Source: Parcubacteria group bacterium
Lineage (GTDB): Bacteria; Patescibacteriota; JABMPQ01
Direction of reading: 5' to 3'
Length of the DNA stretch: 36,039 nt
Assembly: GCA_043826745.1 (NCBI GenBank)
Contig: JBDRPV010000126.1
Coordinates: 1-36,039 of the forward strand
Part shown: piece after piece, positions 1-34,306 of the stretch
How the letters are laid out: the number at the start of each line of letters is the position of its first letter
How positions within the stretch are numbered: the stretch's first letter is position 1
Program-made: the position numbers and the translations under genes
Notes under the pieces: model-generated
Told to the model about the DNA's origin: nothing
What the model saw: the letters and a program-made list of their open reading frames with translations, nothing else
Database searches by the model: none

Positions 1-1587
1 ATAAACCGTGCCACCATTAGCAACGGTAGCAGTCCAACTAGCCACTTGTAACGGAGTAGTCAGAACATCCCCCTGCCCAATAGCCATATGATAAGTATCC
101 CCCAAATACCACTCTTCTCCCTTTTCTTTTTCCTTCCACTCGGGGGTGGGAATTAAACCCAGTTTCTCACCAGGTAAATCTATGCCTGTCTTACTTCCTA
201 GACCAAATTTTTGATAATATTTTTCTAATTTTTCCGCTCCCAGTCCCTCTCGACTTTCATAACCCCCTCCTACCACGTAGAAATAAATATCGGATGATTT
301 AGCAACAGCACTATACACATCCATCGGACCCAAACCGGCTAAGTTCCAGCCCACAAAGTTATAAACGACATCCGGATTATACTTGTTGGGTACACTAATC
401 GATCCAGTATCTTCAATAACAGTATGCTCATTAATTATCCCCTCCTCAAGCGCAGCAGTGGCTACTACTGGCTTGATGGTAGAACCGGGAGGATACGTGC
501 CATTAACCACCCTATTAAAAAGGGGTTTATCCTCATCATTGATTAGGCGATCATAATCCTCCGACAAGATGCCTCCCGTGAAAACATTGTTATCATAAGT
601 AGGCACACTCGTCAAAGAAAGTATTTTACCACTATGCGGTTCCAATATAACCACCGCTGCTTTTTTAGCTCCGATTTCCTCCAAACTATCAGTTACTATT
701 TCATTGATCTTGATTTGTATTTCTTTATCAATTGTTAAAATAAGATCACTACCCGCTACCGGCTCATTGACAGCCACTACTTCTTTGACTTTCCCGCGGG
801 AATCTACTTCCACTTGCTCTTTGCCATGTTGACCACGCAATTCTTGTTCATAGTAATTTTCCAGTCCGCTTTTCCCCAGCCAGTCGGTAGATTGGTAATC
901 ATCTGTCTGCAACTCGTCAAATTCTGCTTCCGTTATTTTTCCCACATACCCTAATATATGGGAAAAGGCTAAGGCGTCTTCATAATAACGCATAGTATTA
1001 ATTCCGATATCGACTCCGGGCCAATCTGGCAACCGGGGCTGGAGATATAAGCTTTTTTCTCTGTCCAGGTTGCGTTTTACCAATACTGGATTGTAAGAAG
1101 TAAAATTAACGTCTTCTAAAACGGCGGCAAACTCGGTAGCCGGGATTTCGGATTGGGACTGAACCTGATCCAAAATTCTATTTCTTTCCTCTTCTTCTTT
1201 GGGTAAATCGGCCGGGATGATAACTAAATCAAAACTGGGTATATTCCGCACTAATATGTTCCTATTGGCATCATATATTATGCCTCGAACCGTTTTTTTA
1301 ATATTTATTCTAAACCTGTTCTCAGCAGCTGCTTGCCTAAATTCGTCACCAGCTAACACTTGTAGTTGAGTTAATCGACCCAGAAGTAGTAAAAACATAA
1401 ATAGAATCAGAGCCGAGAATATTTTGATTTTGCCATAATCAAACAAGGGATTAACAGTTCTAACCTCTTTAGTATCCTGGTGACCAGTCCATAGAGCTTC
1501 GTCCCAATTTTCCATCACTTCACTACTATTCTGTTCCACCGCCTTATCTTCTAGATAATCCACGTGAAAAGGATCCTTTTTTTTCAT
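1..1587 (-). CDS. mrdA: Penicillin-binding protein 2 (peptidoglycan D,D-transpeptidase), first 529 codons; the 3' end runs off the window edge
   Basis: Absent from the ORF track because no stop lies in the window. My translation from the ATG at 1587 is in frame down to nt 1: MKKKDPFHVDYLED..., with a TM segment IFSALILFMFLLLL. It contains the transpeptidase motif PPGSTIKP (SxxK) and KSSDIYFY. The ATG overlaps the mreD stop (ATGA), and the gene sits in the conserved position after mreBCD. Confidence 0.85.
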   Translation of the reverse strand, partial: MKKKDPFHVDYLEDKAVEQNSSEVMENWDEALWTGHQDTKEVRTVNPLFDYGKIKIFSALILFMFLLLLGRLTQLQVLAGDEFRQAAAENRFRINIKKTVRGIIYDANRNILVRNIPSFDLVIIPADLPKEEEERNRILDQVQSQSEIPATEFAAVLEDVNFTSYNPVLVKRNLDREKSLYLQPRLPDWPGVDIGINTMRYYEDALAFSHILGYVGKITEAEFDELQTDDYQSTDWLGKSGLENYYEQELRGQHGKEQVEVDSRGKVKEVVAVNEPVAGSDLILTIDKEIQIKINEIVTDSLEEIGAKKAAVVILEPHSGKILSLTSVPTYDNNVFTGGILSEDYDRLINDEDKPLFNRVVNGTYPPGSTIKPVVATAALEEGIINEHTVIEDTGSISVPNKYNPDVVYNFVGWNLAGLGPMDVYSAVAKSSDIYFYVVGGGYESREGLGAEKLEKYYQKFGLGSKTGIDLPGEKLGLIPTPEWKEKEKGEEWYLGDTYHMAIGQGDVLTTPLQVASWTATVANGGTVY

Positions 1588-2117: not shown

Positions 2118-2920
2118 CAGTTTGTAATTACATATACTAAACGCAAATCATGAAAATTGAACATCGGTTTGACTTTGGCTTTCTGAAAGAGAGCATTATT
2201 GCTAGTACTAATTTCTTCTACTTCTCCCAATAGTAGTCCACGCGGGAATAACTGGCCAATACCAGAAGTTACCACTAAATCACCTACTTTTACTTCTTTA
2301 TCTTGCGGAATCATATCCATCACTAAAGCTAGGTTATGCTCACCAGTAACTATGCCAGTAGCGCCAGAATTAACCACCTCAGCGTTAATCTTACTGCGCG
2401 AATCAACCACTGGCAGGATGCTAGCTGTGGTTGCTTCCGCCTCAAGGATTTGACCTACCAGCACACCATCAGATAAAACTACTGGCATGCTTTTATCAAC
2501 ACTGTCTTCTTTCCCCCGATCAACTCCGAGAGAGAAAAACAGATTATTTGGATCCCGACTAATCACAAAAGAGGGGACCATCTCTTCTTCTCGTTCGCCG
2601 ACAAATCCTAATTCCTCACGCAGCATTTTATTTTCACTCGTCAAAGCCTTTACTTGACTTTTACTGACATAAAGACTCCTCACTTTTTCCTCTAGAGCCT
2701 TATTTTGCTGCTCTAGCTCGCGAATAGAAACCACCAAACGAGAATAAGTAGAAATTTTCTCTCCCACATCATAAAAATAAGACTGGATCGGGGAAAGACC
2801 AGCCTTTAAGACATTAGTAAGTGGCCGCAGGAGGTTAGTACTATTCAAAATAAAAAATAGAGCGACCAAAACCACACTGACAAGTAGAAATAGAGAACCG
2901 GGGAAACTTTTAAACTTCAT
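2114..2920 (-). CDS. mreC: Rod shape-determining protein MreC
   Basis: 268 aa with an N-terminal TM helix and a coiled-coil region (ELEQQNKALEEKVRSL). The C-terminal beta domain carries the typical GDLVVTSGIGQLFPRGLLLGEV block. It is 13 nt downstream of mreB. Confidence 0.85.
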   Translation of the reverse strand: MKFKSFPGSLFLLVSVVLVALFFILNSTNLLRPLTNVLKAGLSPIQSYFYDVGEKISTYSRLVVSIRELEQQNKALEEKVRSLYVSKSQVKALTSENKMLREELGFVGEREEEMVPSFVISRDPNNLFFSLGVDRGKEDSVDKSMPVVLSDGVLVGQILEAEATTASILPVVDSRSKINAEVVNSGATGIVTGEHNLALVMDMIPQDKEVKVGDLVVTSGIGQLFPRGLLLGEVEEISTSNNALFQKAKVKPMFNFHDLRLVYVITNW

Positions 2921-2933
2921 ACTGTTAACCCCT

Positions 2934-3995
2934 TTATTTCTTTATTATCATACCATCTTCAGGAGAAACTAGGACATCTTTTAAGCTATCAATATCCTCC
3001 AAGATTATGCCCGTGCCACGCACTACACATGTCAGAGGATCATCAGCCAGAAAAACAGGAATTTTCGTTTGTTCGGTGATTAGCTTGTCTAAGCCTCTCA
3101 GTAATACCCCACCCCCAGCTAAAACAATCCCATTGCACATTATATCAGCCACCAACTCCGGCGGAGTTTCTTCAATTACCATTTTGATATTATCAACAAT
3201 GATATGAACTGAGCGAGCGATTGCTTTTCTAACATCCCCATCCAGAACCTTAACTTCTTTGGGTAAGCCAGTAACCAAATCTCGACCACGCATAACAGTC
3301 TGCAACGGTTTTTTTAGGGGAATAGCTGAGCCCACCGCTATTTTAATTTCTTCGGCTGTCCGCTCTCCTAGCAATAAATTAAGCTCATCGCGAGCGAATT
3401 GAATGATATTTTCGTTCATCTCATCCCCAGCTACTCGCAGCGACTTAGCCACCACTACTCCTCCGAGAGATAGTATTGCGATTTCGGTAGTGCCTCCGCC
3501 AATATCAACAATCATACTACCGGCCGCATCCTGGACTGGTAACCGAGCTCCAATAGCAGCCGCCATCGGCTCTTCTACTAGAAATGTCTGACGAGCACCA
3601 GCACTCTTGGCGGCGTCTTCTACCGCTTTTTTCTCCACCTCAGTTACTCCGGAAGGGATACCAATTACTACCCGAGGGCGGGGCAAGAGAGAAAAACTGC
3701 CTTTGTGCACCTTTTCCACAAAATATTTAAGCATTTGTTCGGTGATCTCAAAATCGGATACTACTCCATCTACTAACGGACGACTAGCAACAATGTGAGC
3801 TGGGGTCTTTCCGACCATTTTACGAGCTTCAGTACCAATAGCTAATATCTGACCGGTGCGTTTATTGACTGCTACTACTGACGGTTCGTTAATGACAATC
3901 CCTTCATTTTTTACGTAAACTAAAGTATTAGCGGTACCAAGATCGATACCGATATCTTTGGAGAACTTTCCTAGAATGTCACTTATTATTGGCAT
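2934..3995 (-). CDS. mreB: Actin-like rod-shape protein MreB (copy 1, in the mreBCD-mrdA operon)
   Basis: 353 aa. Actin-fold phosphate and adenosine motifs are present: GIDLGTANTLVYV, MIVDIGGGTTEIA and IVLAGGGVLLRGLD. The start overlaps the proS stop by 10 nt. Confidence 0.95.
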   Translation of the reverse strand: MPIISDILGKFSKDIGIDLGTANTLVYVKNEGIVINEPSVVAVNKRTGQILAIGTEARKMVGKTPAHIVASRPLVDGVVSDFEITEQMLKYFVEKVHKGSFSLLPRPRVVIGIPSGVTEVEKKAVEDAAKSAGARQTFLVEEPMAAAIGARLPVQDAAGSMIVDIGGGTTEIAILSLGGVVVAKSLRVAGDEMNENIIQFARDELNLLLGERTAEEIKIAVGSAIPLKKPLQTVMRGRDLVTGLPKEVKVLDGDVRKAIARSVHIIVDNIKMVIEETPPELVADIMCNGIVLAGGGVLLRGLDKLITEQTKIPVFLADDPLTCVVRGTGIILEDIDSLKDVLVSPEDGMIIKK

Positions 3996-5227
3996 AATGA
4001 ATCAATATCTAACTTCTTCAAAGGCATAATTTCAACTTTATCACTATCTCGCCTTTTCACCTCGCAGCCGCCATTTTCCAATGTTTTTGCGCTTATGATC
4101 AGGCGTACGGGCATTCCTAAGAGATCCGCATCAGCCAATTTCTGACCTACTCCTGTATCCAAACGGTCATCATATAATACTCCAACATTCTCTGCCTGTA
4201 AAGTCTTATACAACTTGTCACTCTCACTTTTTACCTGGTCGTTTTTATCAGCACCGATAGGAATTAAATGTGCTCTAAAGGGAGCAACATTAGTCGGCCA
4301 GATGATCCCCACCTCATCATGATGCACCTCGACAATTGCCCCCATTAATCTAGATATTCCGATACCATAACAACCCATAATCACATCCTGCTCTTGACCT
4401 TTCTCATCGGTGTAGGTGAGACCAAAATCCTTGGCATATTTGCTACCCAACTTAAATATATTACCGACCTCAATCGCTTTATTTTTCTCCAATTCACCCT
4501 GACAATCGGGACATTTATCACCGGTAAAAATTTCTTTGTTTTGGTGCAAATCACACTTAGAGCAAGAGAAAACAATGTCTTCTCCGTGAGGGGTAAAGAC
4601 CTGAAACTCATCGGAAAACTTAGAAAAAGTCCCACCACTAGCCTTTACCAACTTGGCATCTAAGCCACAACGACTAAAAATATTCTGATACGCAGTAATA
4701 AACTTCTTATAATATTTGTCCAGATCAGCTTGATCACGATGAAAGCTGTATAAATCTTTCATGTTGAATTCCCGCCCGCGCAACAAGCCTGATTTAGAAC
4801 GAGGTTCATCACGAAACTTAGTTTGTATCTGGTACAAAGATACCGGTAAGTCCCGATAAGAATTAACGTATTTGCCTACTAACGGGGTGACCACCTCCTC
4901 ATGACTGGCTCCCAAGGCATATTCTTTATCACCCGAACCTTTTAATTTAAATAAAACATCAAATCCTTCCCAACGACCAGTCTTTTGCCAGTTGGATTTG
5001 GGAGAAAGAGCCGGCATCAATATCTCTTGACCACCAAGCTTGTTCATCTCTGCTCGTACAATCTCTTGGATATTATTAAGCACTTTTAAACCCAAAGGTA
5101 AATAGCTATAAACTCCGGCCACTAATTTATCAACATAGCCGGCTCGCAATAATAGCTGGGCGTTTAGACTGACCTCATCAGGAGGAGTTTCTTTTTGGGT
5201 TTTACTGAATAAAGTGGATTGATACAT
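3986..5227 (-). CDS. proS: Prolyl-tRNA synthetase, short bacterial-type form lacking the INS editing domain
   Basis: 413 aa. Class II motifs are present: FRDEPRSKSGLLRGREFNMKD (motif 2 region) and GCYGIGISRLMGAIVE (motif 3). There is a C-terminal anticodon-binding region. A roughly 25-aa CxxC...CxxC segment sits where the editing insertion is normally found. Confidence 0.9.
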   Translation of the reverse strand: MYQSTLFSKTQKETPPDEVSLNAQLLLRAGYVDKLVAGVYSYLPLGLKVLNNIQEIVRAEMNKLGGQEILMPALSPKSNWQKTGRWEGFDVLFKLKGSGDKEYALGASHEEVVTPLVGKYVNSYRDLPVSLYQIQTKFRDEPRSKSGLLRGREFNMKDLYSFHRDQADLDKYYKKFITAYQNIFSRCGLDAKLVKASGGTFSKFSDEFQVFTPHGEDIVFSCSKCDLHQNKEIFTGDKCPDCQGELEKNKAIEVGNIFKLGSKYAKDFGLTYTDEKGQEQDVIMGCYGIGISRLMGAIVEVHHDEVGIIWPTNVAPFRAHLIPIGADKNDQVKSESDKLYKTLQAENVGVLYDDRLDTGVGQKLADADLLGMPVRLIISAKTLENGGCEVKRRDSDKVEIMPLKKLDIDSLCQ

Positions 5228-9884: not shown

Positions 9885-9890
9885 AGGTAT

Positions 9891-9957
9891 GTTATGTGTT
9901 ACCAGTTACGTGTTACGGATTATAAATTAGATCTACTCGTAACTGGTAATACATAAC
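9891..9957. repeat. Simple-sequence intergenic hairpin with a 20-bp stem made of GTTAC/GTAAC units
   Basis: GTTATGTGTTACCAGTTACG (9891-9910) pairs with CGTAACTGGTAATACATAAC (9938-9957) with a single G/T position and a 27-nt loop. It abuts the stop of the GT4 gene and lies 6 nt from the IMPase start. Confidence 0.8.
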
Positions 9958-11079
9958 TTATAACACATCCTCAATCGCCGCCAAAGTCTCCCGCGCGCAC
10001 TTCTGCCAACTAAAATCGGTAACTCTTTTAACGCCTTTTTGTACTAGATCCTGACGCAACTCATCATCCCCAACTATCTTGGCCATCGCCGCCACTATAT
10101 CAGGCACATCATAGGGATCAAATAGTAAAGCAGCTCCGCCCGCCACCTCCGGAATCGAAGCCGCCCGAGCGGCTAAAATCGGTGTTTGGCAACTCATGGC
10201 CTCGAGCAGTGGTAAACCAAAGCCTTCGTAGAAGCTGGGGAAAACAAAAGCCAGACTAGCACTTAGTAGAATGGGTAAGTCCTCCTCATCTACCCAGCCG
10301 GTTTCAATCACTTCTCGTTCTAGTTTGTGCTTTCCAATCAGCTCCTGCACCTGCTCGTAATTATGCCCGGGGCTGCCGACTAGAACTAATTTGTGCTCAA
10401 ATCTATTGCTCTGCTTAAATTCCGCGAATGCTTTTATTAGTCCGGGGGTATTTTTCTTTTCTTCCAGCCGCCCGATATAGATAAAATACGAGGCATTGGT
10501 AGGTACTTTGTATTTTTTTAGAGTCGCGGAAATTTTTTCTCGATCGCTTACGGGTTGAAAAATACCAGCGTCAAATCCCAGATATATTACCTGAATACGT
10601 TCCGGATCAATCCCACAGCGCTTTACTATTTCTTGCTTGGTGAAATTAGAAATAGTTAATATTTTGGTTGCTTTTTTGATTGCCTGCCGCAAACCGAAAT
10701 TATGATATTTAAGCTCCTTTTGCGGATATAATTCCGGTTTACTAACAAAGCCAATATCCATAATCGTGGTCACGGTCTTGGCGGGACTGACCAGGGGAAT
10801 AATATGGGCGGGGACAAATAAAACGTCCGGAGCCTTCCGCTTCATCTCCCATGAGAGTCGCAACATCGTCCAGAGATACTTCGGCGGCCATTTTAGAACT
10901 TTCTCCTGAAAATTATCAGGCAGGGAAGCCATCCGACCACTTAATTTGTCTGGAGAATATAAAAAATATCGATTGCGAGAATCGATTTTGGCTAACTCAA
11001 GAATGAGATTGTAAGAGTACCACTCCGTGCCTGTTTTTGCCGCTCGGTTAGCCCGAGAAGCGTCAACGCCGATGGTCAT
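9958..11079 (-). CDS. Glycosyltransferase, GT4 family (GT-B fold)
   Basis: 373 aa. The C-terminal half carries the GT4 signature region: FVFPSFYEGFGLPLLEAMSCQTPILAARAASIPEV. Confidence 0.85.
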   Translation of the reverse strand: MTIGVDASRANRAAKTGTEWYSYNLILELAKIDSRNRYFLYSPDKLSGRMASLPDNFQEKVLKWPPKYLWTMLRLSWEMKRKAPDVLFVPAHIIPLVSPAKTVTTIMDIGFVSKPELYPQKELKYHNFGLRQAIKKATKILTISNFTKQEIVKRCGIDPERIQVIYLGFDAGIFQPVSDREKISATLKKYKVPTNASYFIYIGRLEEKKNTPGLIKAFAEFKQSNRFEHKLVLVGSPGHNYEQVQELIGKHKLEREVIETGWVDEEDLPILLSASLAFVFPSFYEGFGLPLLEAMSCQTPILAARAASIPEVAGGAALLFDPYDVPDIVAAMAKIVGDDELRQDLVQKGVKRVTDFSWQKCARETLAAIEDVL

Positions 11080-11083
11080 TGTT

Positions 11084-11187
11084 TAGATATAAGATTGTAG
11101 ATAATGGATAATATATTAATAGATCACGGATATCGGATTGCAGATTATCTGTTATCTATGATCTATTATCTATAATCTGTTATCTAT
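11084..11187. repeat. AT-rich imperfect palindrome built from AGATTGTAGATAAT / ATTATCTATAATCT units
   Basis: The left end TAGATATAAGATTGTAGATAATGGAT is the imperfect reverse complement of the right end ATCTATTATCTATAATCTGTTATCTA. The element fills the mreB2 stop to GT4 start gap. It shares a 21-mer (2 mismatches) with the element at 21981-22050. Confidence 0.65.
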
Positions 11188-12299: not shown

Positions 12300-12425
12300 C
12301 CCCTGCTAAGCGGGAACCATGCCTGCCCGCTATGCAGCGAGCTGGCGGGCCCACCTCGCCCCGCGAGTCGAGGCGGGCCCGCTCAGTCGATAAACGGTCT
12401 TTCTCGATACACCAGGACGACAATC
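12300..12425. other. GC-rich structured island of unknown function between murA and mreB2
   Basis: I count about 70 G+C in nt 12301-12400, far above the surrounding sequence. It contains a strong hairpin GCGGGCCCACCTCG-CCCCGCGAGT-CGAGGCGGGCCCGC and a second one, GCGGG-AACCATGCCT-GCCCGC. No convincing ORF is present. Confidence 0.3.
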
Positions 12426-13687: not shown

Positions 13688-13747
13688 ATGTTAAGTTAGT
13701 CACTATACTATTATAGCCAAAAATAGCTACTTGGCAATCAAAAACAA

Positions 13748-13824
13748 GAGACTATCACTAAACGCGCTTTCGTTATACCCCCGCCTCGGCGGGGGTAGTA
13801 AAAATGGCGTTTAGCGACAGTCCC
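13748..13824. repeat. Palindromic element A (77 nt) of the GGGACTG-terminus family
   Basis: GAGACTATCACTAAACGCGCTTTCGTTATACCCCCGCC faces GGCGGGGGTAGTAAAAATGGCGTTTAGCGACAGTCCC. The core is the GC palindrome CCCCCGCC-TC-GGCGGGGG. Confidence 0.75.
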
Positions 13825-13870
13825 TGTACCTTTGACAAATAACAGCTACACTGCTACTTTATAGCTAAGT

Positions 13871-13903
13871 GGGGCTGTCGTCAAATACGCTTTCGTTACG
13901 AAA
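13871..13903. repeat. Half-element B of the same family
   Basis: GGGGCTGTCGTCAAATACGCTTTCGTTACGAAA matches the reverse complement of 15477-15509 at 28 of 33 positions (my alignment). Confidence 0.75.
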
Positions 13904-13932
13904 TTTTCATATAAAACAGTTTAATATATCTC

Positions 13933-15324
13933 ATGAAACGTTGGAAACGAAGAATATTTTTTGTCTTTGCAATAGCCATTTTCTTTTTGGTGTCTCCTTT
14001 GGCAATTCTGTATACTAGCGGCTATCGTTACGACTTCAGCGATAAATCCCTCAAGAAGATTGGGATGGTCATTATTGAATCAACGCCAGAAAACGTTAAC
14101 CTTTATATCAATGATCAGTTAGTGGCTGATAAAACTCCCTATAAACAATCTAGTGTCTTCCCCGATGTATATAATATTAAGATCACTAAAGACGACTATA
14201 CTACTTGGGAGAAAAATTTAGCGGTTGAATCAAAACTAGTTACTTGGGTAAGTAACGCCCGAATATTTCCCCTTAATCCATCAACCAAGGTTATCGCCCA
14301 AAAATCGGCGATCACTGACTTTGTCTTCACGCCAGATTACAAAAAAATAGCCTACATTGCTCAAGAAGAAACGGGATCGGAGCTGTGGTTAGCTGATATT
14401 GATGGTGTGGAGCAAAAAAAATTATTCCCGTCAGAGCCAGCAACAAAGCAAAACTACATTTCCAACCTGGAATTGTCTCCAGATAGCCGTAAAGTCCTTT
14501 TTAATTCAGACGGTCAACATTTTGTTGTCGACACTGAAAAGTCAGCTGAACCAAAAGCTATCCCCGGAACCAACTTAGAGAAACTCAGTTGGGATACTCA
14601 TGACTCCGACTTTGTTTATTATCTCCAACAAGGTAAGTTGATTAGCACCAATATTTCTATATCAACCGAGCCCACTGTCATTGCCCAGAACGTGGTCGAC
14701 TATGAAGTCAGACCACGCAGCCTATTTTACCTAAAACAAAAACCAGCCGAAAATGGCCTTACTATTTGTAATATTACTAAAAACAAAATTGAACAGGAAA
14801 GTCAGCCAACCGAAATTTTTCAATTGCCAGGCGATAGTTATATTCTCAAGGTTTCTCCTAATAGCAAGTTAGCTCTCTTAGCTGATAACAAATCGCTTTT
14901 CTTGATAAATGAGGGAGAATTTAGCAAGCTAAAAGATGGGGTGCTTAACTTTACTTGGACGAAAAAAGACGAGGGATTAGTTTTCCACACTGAAAATGAG
15001 GTCTGGTTCTATAAAGCTACCGAAGATAATGAATCGGCCATCACCCATCCGCAATATAATCTTAATGAAACCAACTTACTAACCCGCTATAGCACTAAAA
15101 TAGACTTAGTTACTTGGCATCCCGACGAAGAACATGTCATTTTCGCCACCAATAATAAGCTATATATTAAAGAATTAGATAGTCGCGATCAGGCCAACGG
15201 AACTGAATTAGTGGCGGATTTTCTCGCTAACCGTTACCAGCAAGTATTTACTGATAAGAAGGGGCAAAAGATTTATTATCGGGAGGGGGAATCGGGCGTA
15301 GTTGTCGAGAAAGAGATACATTAA
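13933..15324 (+). CDS. Membrane-anchored PEGA-domain protein with TolB-like (PD40) beta-propeller repeats
   Basis: 463 aa and the only plus-strand gene. It has an N-terminal TM helix (IFFVFAIAIFFLVSPLAILY) and a PEGA-like domain (IIESTPENVNLYINDQLVADKTP...YNIKITKDDY). Repeated xSPD/TPD blocks follow: FTPDYKKIAYIA, LSPDSRKVLF, VSPNSKLALL and WHPDEEHVIFA. Confidence 0.6.
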   Translation: MKRWKRRIFFVFAIAIFFLVSPLAILYTSGYRYDFSDKSLKKIGMVIIESTPENVNLYINDQLVADKTPYKQSSVFPDVYNIKITKDDYTTWEKNLAVESKLVTWVSNARIFPLNPSTKVIAQKSAITDFVFTPDYKKIAYIAQEETGSELWLADIDGVEQKKLFPSEPATKQNYISNLELSPDSRKVLFNSDGQHFVVDTEKSAEPKAIPGTNLEKLSWDTHDSDFVYYLQQGKLISTNISISTEPTVIAQNVVDYEVRPRSLFYLKQKPAENGLTICNITKNKIEQESQPTEIFQLPGDSYILKVSPNSKLALLADNKSLFLINEGEFSKLKDGVLNFTWTKKDEGLVFHTENEVWFYKATEDNESAITHPQYNLNETNLLTRYSTKIDLVTWHPDEEHVIFATNNKLYIKELDSRDQANGTELVADFLANRYQQVFTDKKGQKIYYREGESGVVVEKEIH

Positions 15325-15509
15325 GGGACTGTTGCCAAATACCATTTCGACCTTGCCTACCGGCAGGCAGGCTGCAATTTCTCAATTTCGGCCAGAATCG
15401 TTGAACAAACCTTTCGGCTTATCTCAGCCGATAGGCCTCAAGGTTTGTTCAACGATTCTGTCTCAAAATTGAGAAATTTCGTTACGAAAGCGTATTCGGC
15501 AACAGTCCC
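15325..15509. repeat. Palindromic element C (185 nt, nested inverted repeats) of the GGGACTG-terminus family
   Basis: Termini are GGGACTGTTGCCAAATAC and GTATTCGGCAACAGTCCC. The inner arms AATTTCTCAATTTCGGCCAGAATCGTTGAACAAACC and GGTTTGTTCAACGATTCTGTCTCAAAATTGAGAAATT also pair. The element starts directly after the TAA stop of the PEGA gene, and TTAA is present on both flanks. Confidence 0.8.
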
Positions 15510-15529
15510 ATTAAAATTTAGTGAAACAT

Positions 15530-15554
15530 AAAAGCCCTTACTAGAAGGGCTTTT
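15530..15554. terminator. Bidirectional intrinsic terminator between the convergent PEGA gene and rpsI
   Basis: AAAAGCCCTT-ACTAG-AAGGGCTTTT forms a perfect 10-bp stem. T-runs follow in both reading directions (TTTTATGTTT on the minus strand). Confidence 0.75.
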
Positions 15555-15573
15555 AAAAATACAATGATTAATT

Positions 15574-33671: not shown

Positions 33672-34306
33672 AAAAAGTCCAAGCAAACAATAAGCCGAGT
33701 TTTGTACCGATTTCATCCGAACGAAACGAGGTTTGAAATCGAGTATTCCGCTTCGGCGAGATCTCTCAGCCCCCAAAGGAAGACCAACTTCAAACCAACT
33801 TCGCTCGGATTAATCGTGATGATCATCTATCTAGTCCCGACATCGCTGTCGGGATCAAGCGACTAATAATTTGTCTTGCACCAGGCAGGGTTTACCAGGC
33901 ACTCATGTTACCATGAGGCCAAACGGGTAGCCTTCATGAAAAACATCCCGCTTCTTTTCACCTTTCACCAATGCTCCGCATTGGAAATTCCAACTATCAA
34001 ATCACAATCTCCAAGCAAATGACAAACTACAATTTACAATAATCAAACAGTTTGAAATTTGGTGCTTGTGACTTGGAATTTCCGGTGCGAAGCACCGGTT
34101 AGTATTGTCTCTGCGGCACTCCCGCCAAAGCGGGACCACGACTGCTGTCGAGGTTTCCCTAAAATTCAAGCTAATCACAAGTCCGCGGGACTCCTAATTA
34201 CCTTTCTTTTGGTTGCCGTTAGCAACTGCCATTTTTGATGGTGCTCGGACTTTCCTCCCACTGCGGCCTTGCGGCTACAGAAGGCGATCATCTCGTTTGC
34301 TTGGAC
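33672..34306 (-). ncRNA. rnpB: RNase P RNA (bacterial, type-A-like core) with large helical expansions, about 635 nt
   Basis: Conserved blocks on the minus strand: GGAGGAAAGTCCGAGCAC (34241-34258), AGTGCCGCAGAGACAATAC (34102-34120), GGTAAACCCTGCCTGGTGCAAGACAAAT (about 33871-33898) and ACAAAACTCGGCTTAT (33690-33705). P1 pairs TCCAAGCAAAC (34295-34305) with GTTTGCTTGGA (33678-33688). P2 pairs GAGATGATC with GATCATCAC. A promoter lies immediately upstream. Confidence 0.88.

Follow-up and report, generated by a model that had tools for sequence, protein, structure and literature searches.

A 36,039-nucleotide stretch from a Parcubacteria group bacterium (contig JBDRPV010000126.1 of GenBank assembly GCA_043826745.1; hereafter the window, meaning the whole stretch that was analysed) contains one long open reading frame (ORF) on the plus strand, flanked by three related elements, A, B and C, with ends in GGGACTG. 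This arrangement raises the question of whether the repeats inverted the gene or carried it in as a cassette, whether they are RNA structures placed where transcription changes strand, or whether they arrived on their own account as mobile DNA. An initial annotation of the sequence had put forward all three possibilities. The comparisons described below indicate that A, B and C are very probably three independent insertions of one family of non-coding, hairpin-forming MITEs (miniature inverted-repeat transposable elements), which settled around a gene whose place and orientation are older than the repeats.

The genome containing the window (G000; 1.04 Mb in 136 contigs, 43% GC, 84% complete, the window being contig C126) was compared with two genomes of the same genus (G001 and G002), one from another genus of the same family (G003) and one from another family (G043). 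The phylum was surveyed in an even sample of 401 Patescibacteria genomes.

The three elements belong to one repeat family

The family end motif, GGGACTGTYGYCRAAYRC, was found four times in the window with up to three mismatches allowed. Shuffled sequences gave an expectation of 0.25, and none of 100 shuffles reached four. The initial annotation had grouped A, B and C as three related GGGACTG-ended elements; they do form one repeat family, and the sequence claims made for them all hold. The canonical element is about 160 nt long and has the ends 5'-GGGACTGTCGCCRAAYAC...GTRTTYGGCGACAGTCCC-3'. It occurs together with derivatives of 54–77 nt and with longer forms that carry nested GC-rich mini-palindromes. 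The conserved 18–25 nt end GGGACTGTCGCCRAAYAC is inverted at both termini, so that the family has the terminal inverted repeats of a MITE.

Alignment of the copies from this genus separates a subfamily I, comprising C and the copies on contigs C12 and C101, from a subfamily II, comprising the copy on contig C15 and others. A, B and C come from different subfamilies, three in all: A is a short form of 77 nt, B a truncated member of subfamily II, and C a member of subfamily I that carries a nested 22-nt GC hairpin. Element A is homologous from end to end with the reverse complement of a second 77-nt copy (G000:C135:4262-4338), and its hairpin has a minimum free energy (MFE) of -39.9 kcal/mol on the plus strand and -48.6 kcal/mol on the minus strand (z scores of -7.4 and -8.4). 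A search with nhmmer, using a family profile built from the genus copies, matched positions 13871-13912 of B to the right-end 42 positions of the model (122-163, minus strand), and when gaps are allowed B aligns with the subfamily II copy on contig C15 (reverse complement) over ~61 nt, to about 13931. B alone has no fold (z +1.2). The proposed pairing of B with the 3' arm of C survives proper alignment, with 86% complementarity over 37 nt (13870-13906 / 15474-15510), and B is longer than first described. Since B and C fall into different subfamilies, they are not one repeat pair. Element C scores 154.8 bits on the plus strand and 60.7 bits on the minus strand, and its 185-nt nested hairpin has an MFE of -99.9 kcal/mol (z -13.8).

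The 22-nt palindrome nested in C is absent from the canonical 162-nt copies and is found at the same position in a copy on contig C38 of G002, which is 94% identical to C and lies at an unrelated site. Recurrence of the same composite, C with its nested hairpin, at an unrelated site indicates that the composite transposed as a unit. Other copies have a related palindrome of 20 nt at their apex, and the copy on contig C15 contains a nested GC palindrome of 73 nt; both are also found free-standing elsewhere in G000. Free-standing relatives occur on G000 contigs C62, C63, C66, C86 and C88.

Element C occupies a site that is empty in a close relative

In the window, ...ACATTAA is followed by the 185 nt of C and then by ATTAAAATTTAGTG..., whereas the orthologous sequence of G002, which is 85–89% identical, reads ...GAGATCTATTAATTTTTAGTG..., with ATTAA present once. 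The BLAST segments of G002 against the window abut at this site with a 5-base overlap. G002 therefore has the empty site, and C entered after the lineage split from G002. C begins immediately downstream of the TAA codon that ends the 463-aa ORF, and this stop codon is part of the duplicated target, so that it was rebuilt on insertion. TTAA had been noted on both flanks of C; it is indeed repeated, but the full flank is the 5-bp ATTAA. A and B are likewise missing at the orthologous sites of G001 and G002.

Target-site duplications (TSDs) were then counted in two sets of copies. Among 35 non-redundant copies from the genus and from public genomes, 13 have perfectly matching flanks (5/5), and none of the matches extends to 6 bp; 2000 shuffle trials gave 0.98 such copies on average and never more than 6. 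In an independent set of 27 metagenome copies, one of which shares its flanks with a copy of the first set, 8 are perfect (shuffle mean 0.70, maximum 4) and one extends to 6 bp. The pentamers found in duplicate, such as ATTAA, ATTTA, ATAAA, TTATA and GATCT, are rich in A and T. The family thus combines a TSD of fixed length, 5 bp, with presence or absence at orthologous sites, and the same-genus empty site and the duplications support the suggestion of MITE-like insertions. Four of the five defining features of a MITE that we tested are present; the missing one is a parent element. Coordinates are collected in Table 1.

Table 1 Features of the plus-strand gene and its flanking elements (positions in the window)
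Feature	Position	Strand	Description
End-motif match	13807-13824	-	
End-motif match	13871-13888	+	
End-motif match	15325-15342	+	
End-motif match	15492-15509	-	
Element A	13748..13824	-	77-nt short form with degenerate outer ends and central GC hairpin CCCCCGCCTCGGCGGGGG
Element B	13871 to about 13931	-	Truncated copy, right-end half retained, nearest to subfamily II
Element C	15325..15509	+	Full subfamily I copy, 162 nt canonical plus nested hairpin, inserted at stop codon
Nested mini-palindrome	15350..15371		22 nt, GC-rich, ACCTTGCCTACCGGCAGGCAGG, inside left arm of C
TSD, left copy	15320..15324		ATTAA, includes TAA stop codon of plus-strand gene
TSD, right copy	15510..15514		ATTAA
Resident gene	13933..15324	+	463-aa membrane-anchored PEGA and beta-propeller-like protein; Pfam PEGA, DPPIV_N
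murA promoter-like site	13710..13737	-	TTGCCA, 16 nt, TATAAT; 11/12 consensus positions; conserved in G001 and G002
Promoter-like site of plus-strand gene	13832..13860	+	TTGACA, 17 nt, TACTTT; between A and B; read from sequence
Two-way intrinsic-terminator-like hairpin	15529..15555		AAAAGCCCTT...AAGGGCTTTT, T-runs on both sides; outside C, common to the convergent genes

The family is widely but patchily distributed

Throughout G000 the end motif matches 30 times, compared with 3 times for a reversed-motif control. The initial annotation had named the absence of other copies in the genome as grounds for abandoning its reading; further copies are present. The profile search recovers four full copies (on contigs C12, C15, C101 and, as element C, C126), and motif scans add two 77-nt short forms (A and the copy on C135), one 54-nt form (C34) and solo arms, B included. 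Two-ended copies are therefore present on C12, C15, C101, C126 (A and C), C135 and C34. The family is multi-copy and non-coding, with copy lengths of 54–235 nt, as is usual of a MITE. All copies in G000 are intergenic, and several begin 0–3 nt past a stop codon.

Outside this genome, the end motif matches 10 times in G001 and 32 times in G002, both of the same genus, and as one pair in G043. Only 8 of the 401 sampled Patescibacteria have a match with at most one mismatch. Exact-pattern scans found copies of ~160 nt in many metagenome contigs and in metagenome-assembled genomes (MAGs), some labelled Kerfeldbacteria, Parcubacteria or Sungiibacteriota and others belonging to further Patescibacteria. 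Matches in so few sampled genomes, together with copies across several Patescibacteria groups, show that the distribution is wide but patchy. The copies elsewhere lie between co-directional, convergent and divergent genes.

Contig C12 (L006) is 92% identical to G001 (G001:C15) and ~80% identical to G002 (G002:C14), and its 162-nt copy is identical to that of G001. The window, unlike contig C12, is ~72% identical to G001 and 85–89% identical to G002. The G000 bin may mix two related strains, or the stretch on C12 may have been exchanged between them.

One strand of the element folds better than the other

The profile gives each copy an orientation, full genus copies scoring about 150 bits on one strand and 58 bits on the other. 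The same strand folds better as RNA in 29/29 orientable copies of the first set and 24/24 of the metagenome set, or 53/53 in all, with mean differences of 14.5 and 13.1 kcal/mol; this strand reads 5'-GGGACTGTCGCCGAATACGCTTTCG.... The effect is also present in the variable inner part alone (44/46 copies and 8/8 sequence clusters). The strand folds better because the G-U wobbles sit on it: the consensus pairs comprise 102 G-U and 20 A-C combinations, G-U still leading by 40 to 23 if the other strand supplies the structure, and the pair columns with G-U number 38, those with A-C 18. With respect to the gene upstream, 18 copies are forward-sense and 8 reverse-sense, a difference that is not significant and comes from copies that are not independent, and the sense strand is more often the weaker-folding one. 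This mixture of orientations, with the weaker strand more often sense, indicates that the bias is a property of the element lineage, not of host transcripts. Some of it may be inherited from a common ancestor. The asymmetry suggests that a single-stranded form of the wobble-tolerant strand matters in the life cycle of the element.

One alternative to an ordinary MITE starts from this asymmetry. In that account the family would be a hairpin-dependent mobile element rather than the usual deletion derivative of some known insertion sequence; its propagation would need one specific strand to fold, either as RNA or, at the replication fork, as single-stranded DNA, and the fixed 5-bp staggered cut would be made by an enzyme outside the transposase families checked, possibly carried on a transient element. 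The strand effect in 53/53 copies and in the inner part, together with the lack of a partner gene in the ~70 loci described below, is the support left to it, and we consider it possible but rather unlikely. Another reading, in which the copies are REP/REPIN-like or other hairpin-dependent elements moved through the folded strand by an HUH/Y1-type or other single-strand-specific enzyme, draws on the same strand effect and wobble counts and on a hairpin that covers the whole element. However, fixed 5-bp TSDs and a clean empty site are not products of single-strand HUH transposition, and no Y1_Tnp gene was found in G000, G001, G002 or G043, which makes this reading improbable.

The search for a mobilizing enzyme

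The MITE reading has several observations to answer for besides these. A perfect duplication is kept in only about a third of the copies. Neither G000-G002 nor ~70 public element-bearing loci of up to 14.6 kb nor viral contigs yielded an autonomous parent element whose ends match, although MAG assembly loses repeats and this absence is accordingly weak evidence; wherever two ends enclosed a longer interval, the genes inside were housekeeping genes. No Tn3, DDE_Tnp_4 or Y1 transposase was found in G000-G002 (the search for DDE_Tnp_4 and Y1_Tnp extended to G043), and the two insertion sequences of G000 have unrelated ends, one of them making a 9-bp duplication. Finally, the hairpin extends over the entire element, not just its ends, and shows a strand-specific wobble bias, a bias that an ordinary double-strand DDE mechanism does not predict.

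Individual candidates were rejected as follows. The two-end intervals L065, L095, L132, L136, L153 and L358 proved to be separate copies around housekeeping genes, encoding an aldolase, PfkB, guanylate kinase, S10, a beta-propeller protein and an M24 peptidase. A Tn3-derived origin had been prompted by the 5-bp TSD and the G-run ends. Tn3 transposase (PF01526) occurs in 3/401 genomes, none of which carries the element, and the Tn3 ends readable in two of these three (GGGGGACCGTAAGG... and GGGCATAGCTGC...) differ from the ends of the element. An IS4-like element on G000 contig C43 has unrelated ends (CACTAGTGTCCGG) and, as comparison with its relatives shows, a 9-bp duplication, AGATATACT. The ends of an rve element (G000:C54) and a DDE_Tnp_1 element (G002:C49) are also unrelated. 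GIY-YIG genes were found at 19 loci in G000, G001, G002 and G043, none of them framed by family ends, and viral contigs gave only chance matches in GC-rich DNA.

Some of these loci merit description in their own right. The IS4-like element (G000:C43, about 334-1657) encodes a 399-aa DDE_Tnp_1 protein, has a fragment at G000:C12:20978-21130 and has relatives in 9 other genomes of the 401. Two GIY-YIG loci of G000 lie inside or adjoin tRNA genes: the genes at G000:C15:78-287 and G000:C5:5559-5768, with frames of 106 and 92 aa, are flanked by duplicated tRNA segments, which looks like homing-type insertion into tRNA genes. In a Kerfeldbacteria contig (MHKF01000018; L050, 2384-3405) an element of ~1 kb with the ends (TA)GACCTGTTGCGTATTAA and a 299-aa ORF interrupts a tyrosine-recombinase-like gene, and a solo GGGACTG-family end directly adjoins the stop codon of the recombinase.

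The element inserts into AT-rich targets and duplicates a fixed 5 bp of them; often the target is a stop codon, which the duplication rebuilds. C derives from a master copy in which the nested hairpin was already present, and it inserted after the split from G002. In the model that we favour, the staggered 5-bp cut would be made by an enzyme supplied in trans, probably a DDE-type transposase that the assembled genomes of the genus do not encode. A may have landed between divergent promoters, B in the leader of the plus-strand gene, with loss of its distal half, and C between the stop codon and the resident terminator, and all three would be positions of low harm.

The elements are very unlikely to be host terminators or insulators

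The initial annotation had also proposed structured RNAs, acting as insulators or terminators at the points where transcription changes strand. Host-selected RNAs at gene boundaries, whether terminators, mRNA stabilizers or insulators, would account for the very stable folds (z of -13.8 for C and about -8 for A), for the strand-specific wobble bias and for the many copies directly past stop codons. The surroundings of the elements give this proposal no support. Element A lies between two divergent promoter-like sites, 10 and 7 nt from their -35 boxes, and is probably not transcribed. The block TTGACA...TATAGCTAAG, which a consensus scan did not call, is kept in G001 and G002, and B sits in the leader between this promoter-like block and the ATG. 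On the 3' side, the hairpin just past C, with MFE values of -14.2 and -13.7 kcal/mol and a z score of about -4 on each strand, is kept in G002. Because this separate terminator-like hairpin is retained in a relative that lacks C, C is not needed as a terminator. Nor does C have the features of an intrinsic terminator: ATTAAAATTTAG comes after it, and a terminator scan made no call. Searches of Rfam gave no match at threshold, only microRNA-hairpin models at 23–30 bits against thresholds of 77–119. Together with the element-free orthologous sites of close relatives, the varied gene contexts elsewhere and the mixed orientation of copies, of which the better-folding strand is usually antisense, these results make selection by the host as structured RNA very improbable.

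Two observations in relatives concern the same boundaries. At the spot occupied by A, G002 has an insertion of ~950 bp (G002:C36; L027, reverse complement about 2560-3540) that contains a GC-rich palindrome as well as an ORF in which a zinc-finger motif, CxxC...CxxC, is present; insertions seem to land repeatedly in the gap that separates the divergent promoters. In G001 (G001:C6; L028, about 4190-4560), a solo arm, AGGACTGTTGCCAAACAA, lies directly past the TAG stop of the orthologous gene and is followed by a small minus-strand ORF, also with CxxC...CxxC. This arm represents either an independent insertion at the same stop codon or an old copy that was later disrupted.

The plus-strand gene is ancestral in place and orientation

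The gene between the elements is the sole long plus-strand ORF of the window and lies between murA (-) and rpsI-rplM-rpoA (-). That all other genes are on the minus strand, as originally noted, is true for non-shadow ORFs of at least 100 aa in the window. G001, G002 and G003 have the same order, mreB(-) murA(-) orthologue(+) rpsI(-) rplM(-) rpoA(-). The G003 orthologue is 34% identical (E 4e-82), and the intergenic regions beside it, of 92 and 44 bp, are free of elements. The gene and the strand switch are ancestral in place and orientation, and the gene is not part of the mobile elements. The idea that direct and inverted repeats inverted the gene or mobilized it as a composite cassette, which B and C flanking the gene with B inverted relative to the 3' arm of C had invited, and for which two-MITE composites of Tn3-derived elements offer a precedent (PMC13367494), can be dismissed, because element-free relatives have the same order and orientation without flanking copies, B and C belong to different subfamilies and C has its own TSD.

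Bracketing of a gene by the family is seen elsewhere. In another Patescibacteria genome (L136), two copies (3721-3883 and about 4376-4536) bracket rpsJ, between tuf and rplC, which shows that such bracketing recurs without sign of gene movement.

Other repeats and RNAs in the window

The RNase P RNA at 33676-34303 (-) (Rfam RF00010, 146 bits) measures 628 nt for a model of 367 positions. A family copy inside it was considered and rejected, as the end motif is absent there. Between mreB and murA, at 12319-12382, lies a GC-rich near-perfect palindrome (GCGGGCCCACCTCGCCCCG / CGAGTCGAGGCGGGCCCGC), short stretches of which occur at 93–97% identity at unrelated sites of G001 and G002; their recurrence at unrelated places points to another small repeat family. 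Two intergenic AT-rich palindromes, at 9888-9960 and 11117-11168, have arms of 26 and 22 nt and lie outside the GGGACTG family.

Implications and comparison with known systems

Patescibacteria genomes are among the smallest and most streamlined of bacteria, and yet a mobile hairpin is present in this genus in dozens of copies. Located at stop codons, in leaders of housekeeping genes and between divergent promoters, these copies inflate intergenic regions. They also break assemblies, several lying at the ends of contigs, and may be misread as regulatory RNAs or as traces of rearrangement. In annotation, such palindromes should be masked as mobile repeats, and the strand switch at this locus should be treated as ancestral. 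Both the enzyme that moves the element and the wobble-tolerant fold of its one strand would bear on how mobile DNA persists in minimal genomes. We found no description of MITEs in Patescibacteria in the literature searched.

By the tests applied here, the element is not a Tn3-derived MITE (TIME), a REPIN, a terminator or a member of an Rfam family. REP/REPIN sequences with their RAYT proteins are likewise intergenic palindromes in which the hairpin of one strand appears to matter; unlike them, the present element makes TSDs and is ~160 nt long, and a Y1/RAYT gene (PF01797) was not found in the four genomes searched. The TIME elements resemble it in the 5-bp duplication of AT-rich targets, in G-run ends and in pairs that can bracket genes. 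Tn3-family elements end in a repeat of roughly 38 bp, GGGG...TAAG. The ends of the present element do not match this repeat, and a Tn3 transposase was found neither in G000-G002 nor, in combination with the element, among the 401 genomes of the phylum.

The Correia/NEMIS elements of Neisseria and the RUP elements of Streptococcus pneumoniae are similar in being short and non-coding, in occurring in multiple copies and in having terminal inverted repeats and a TSD of fixed length; they too insert between genes and differ in presence or absence between close relatives. Correia elements duplicate TA, and their processing by RNase III and their effects on promoters are known. The present family differs from both in its unrelated end sequences, in a 5-bp AT-rich TSD with no parent insertion sequence identified, and in being, over its whole length, a hairpin with a strand-specific G-U bias.

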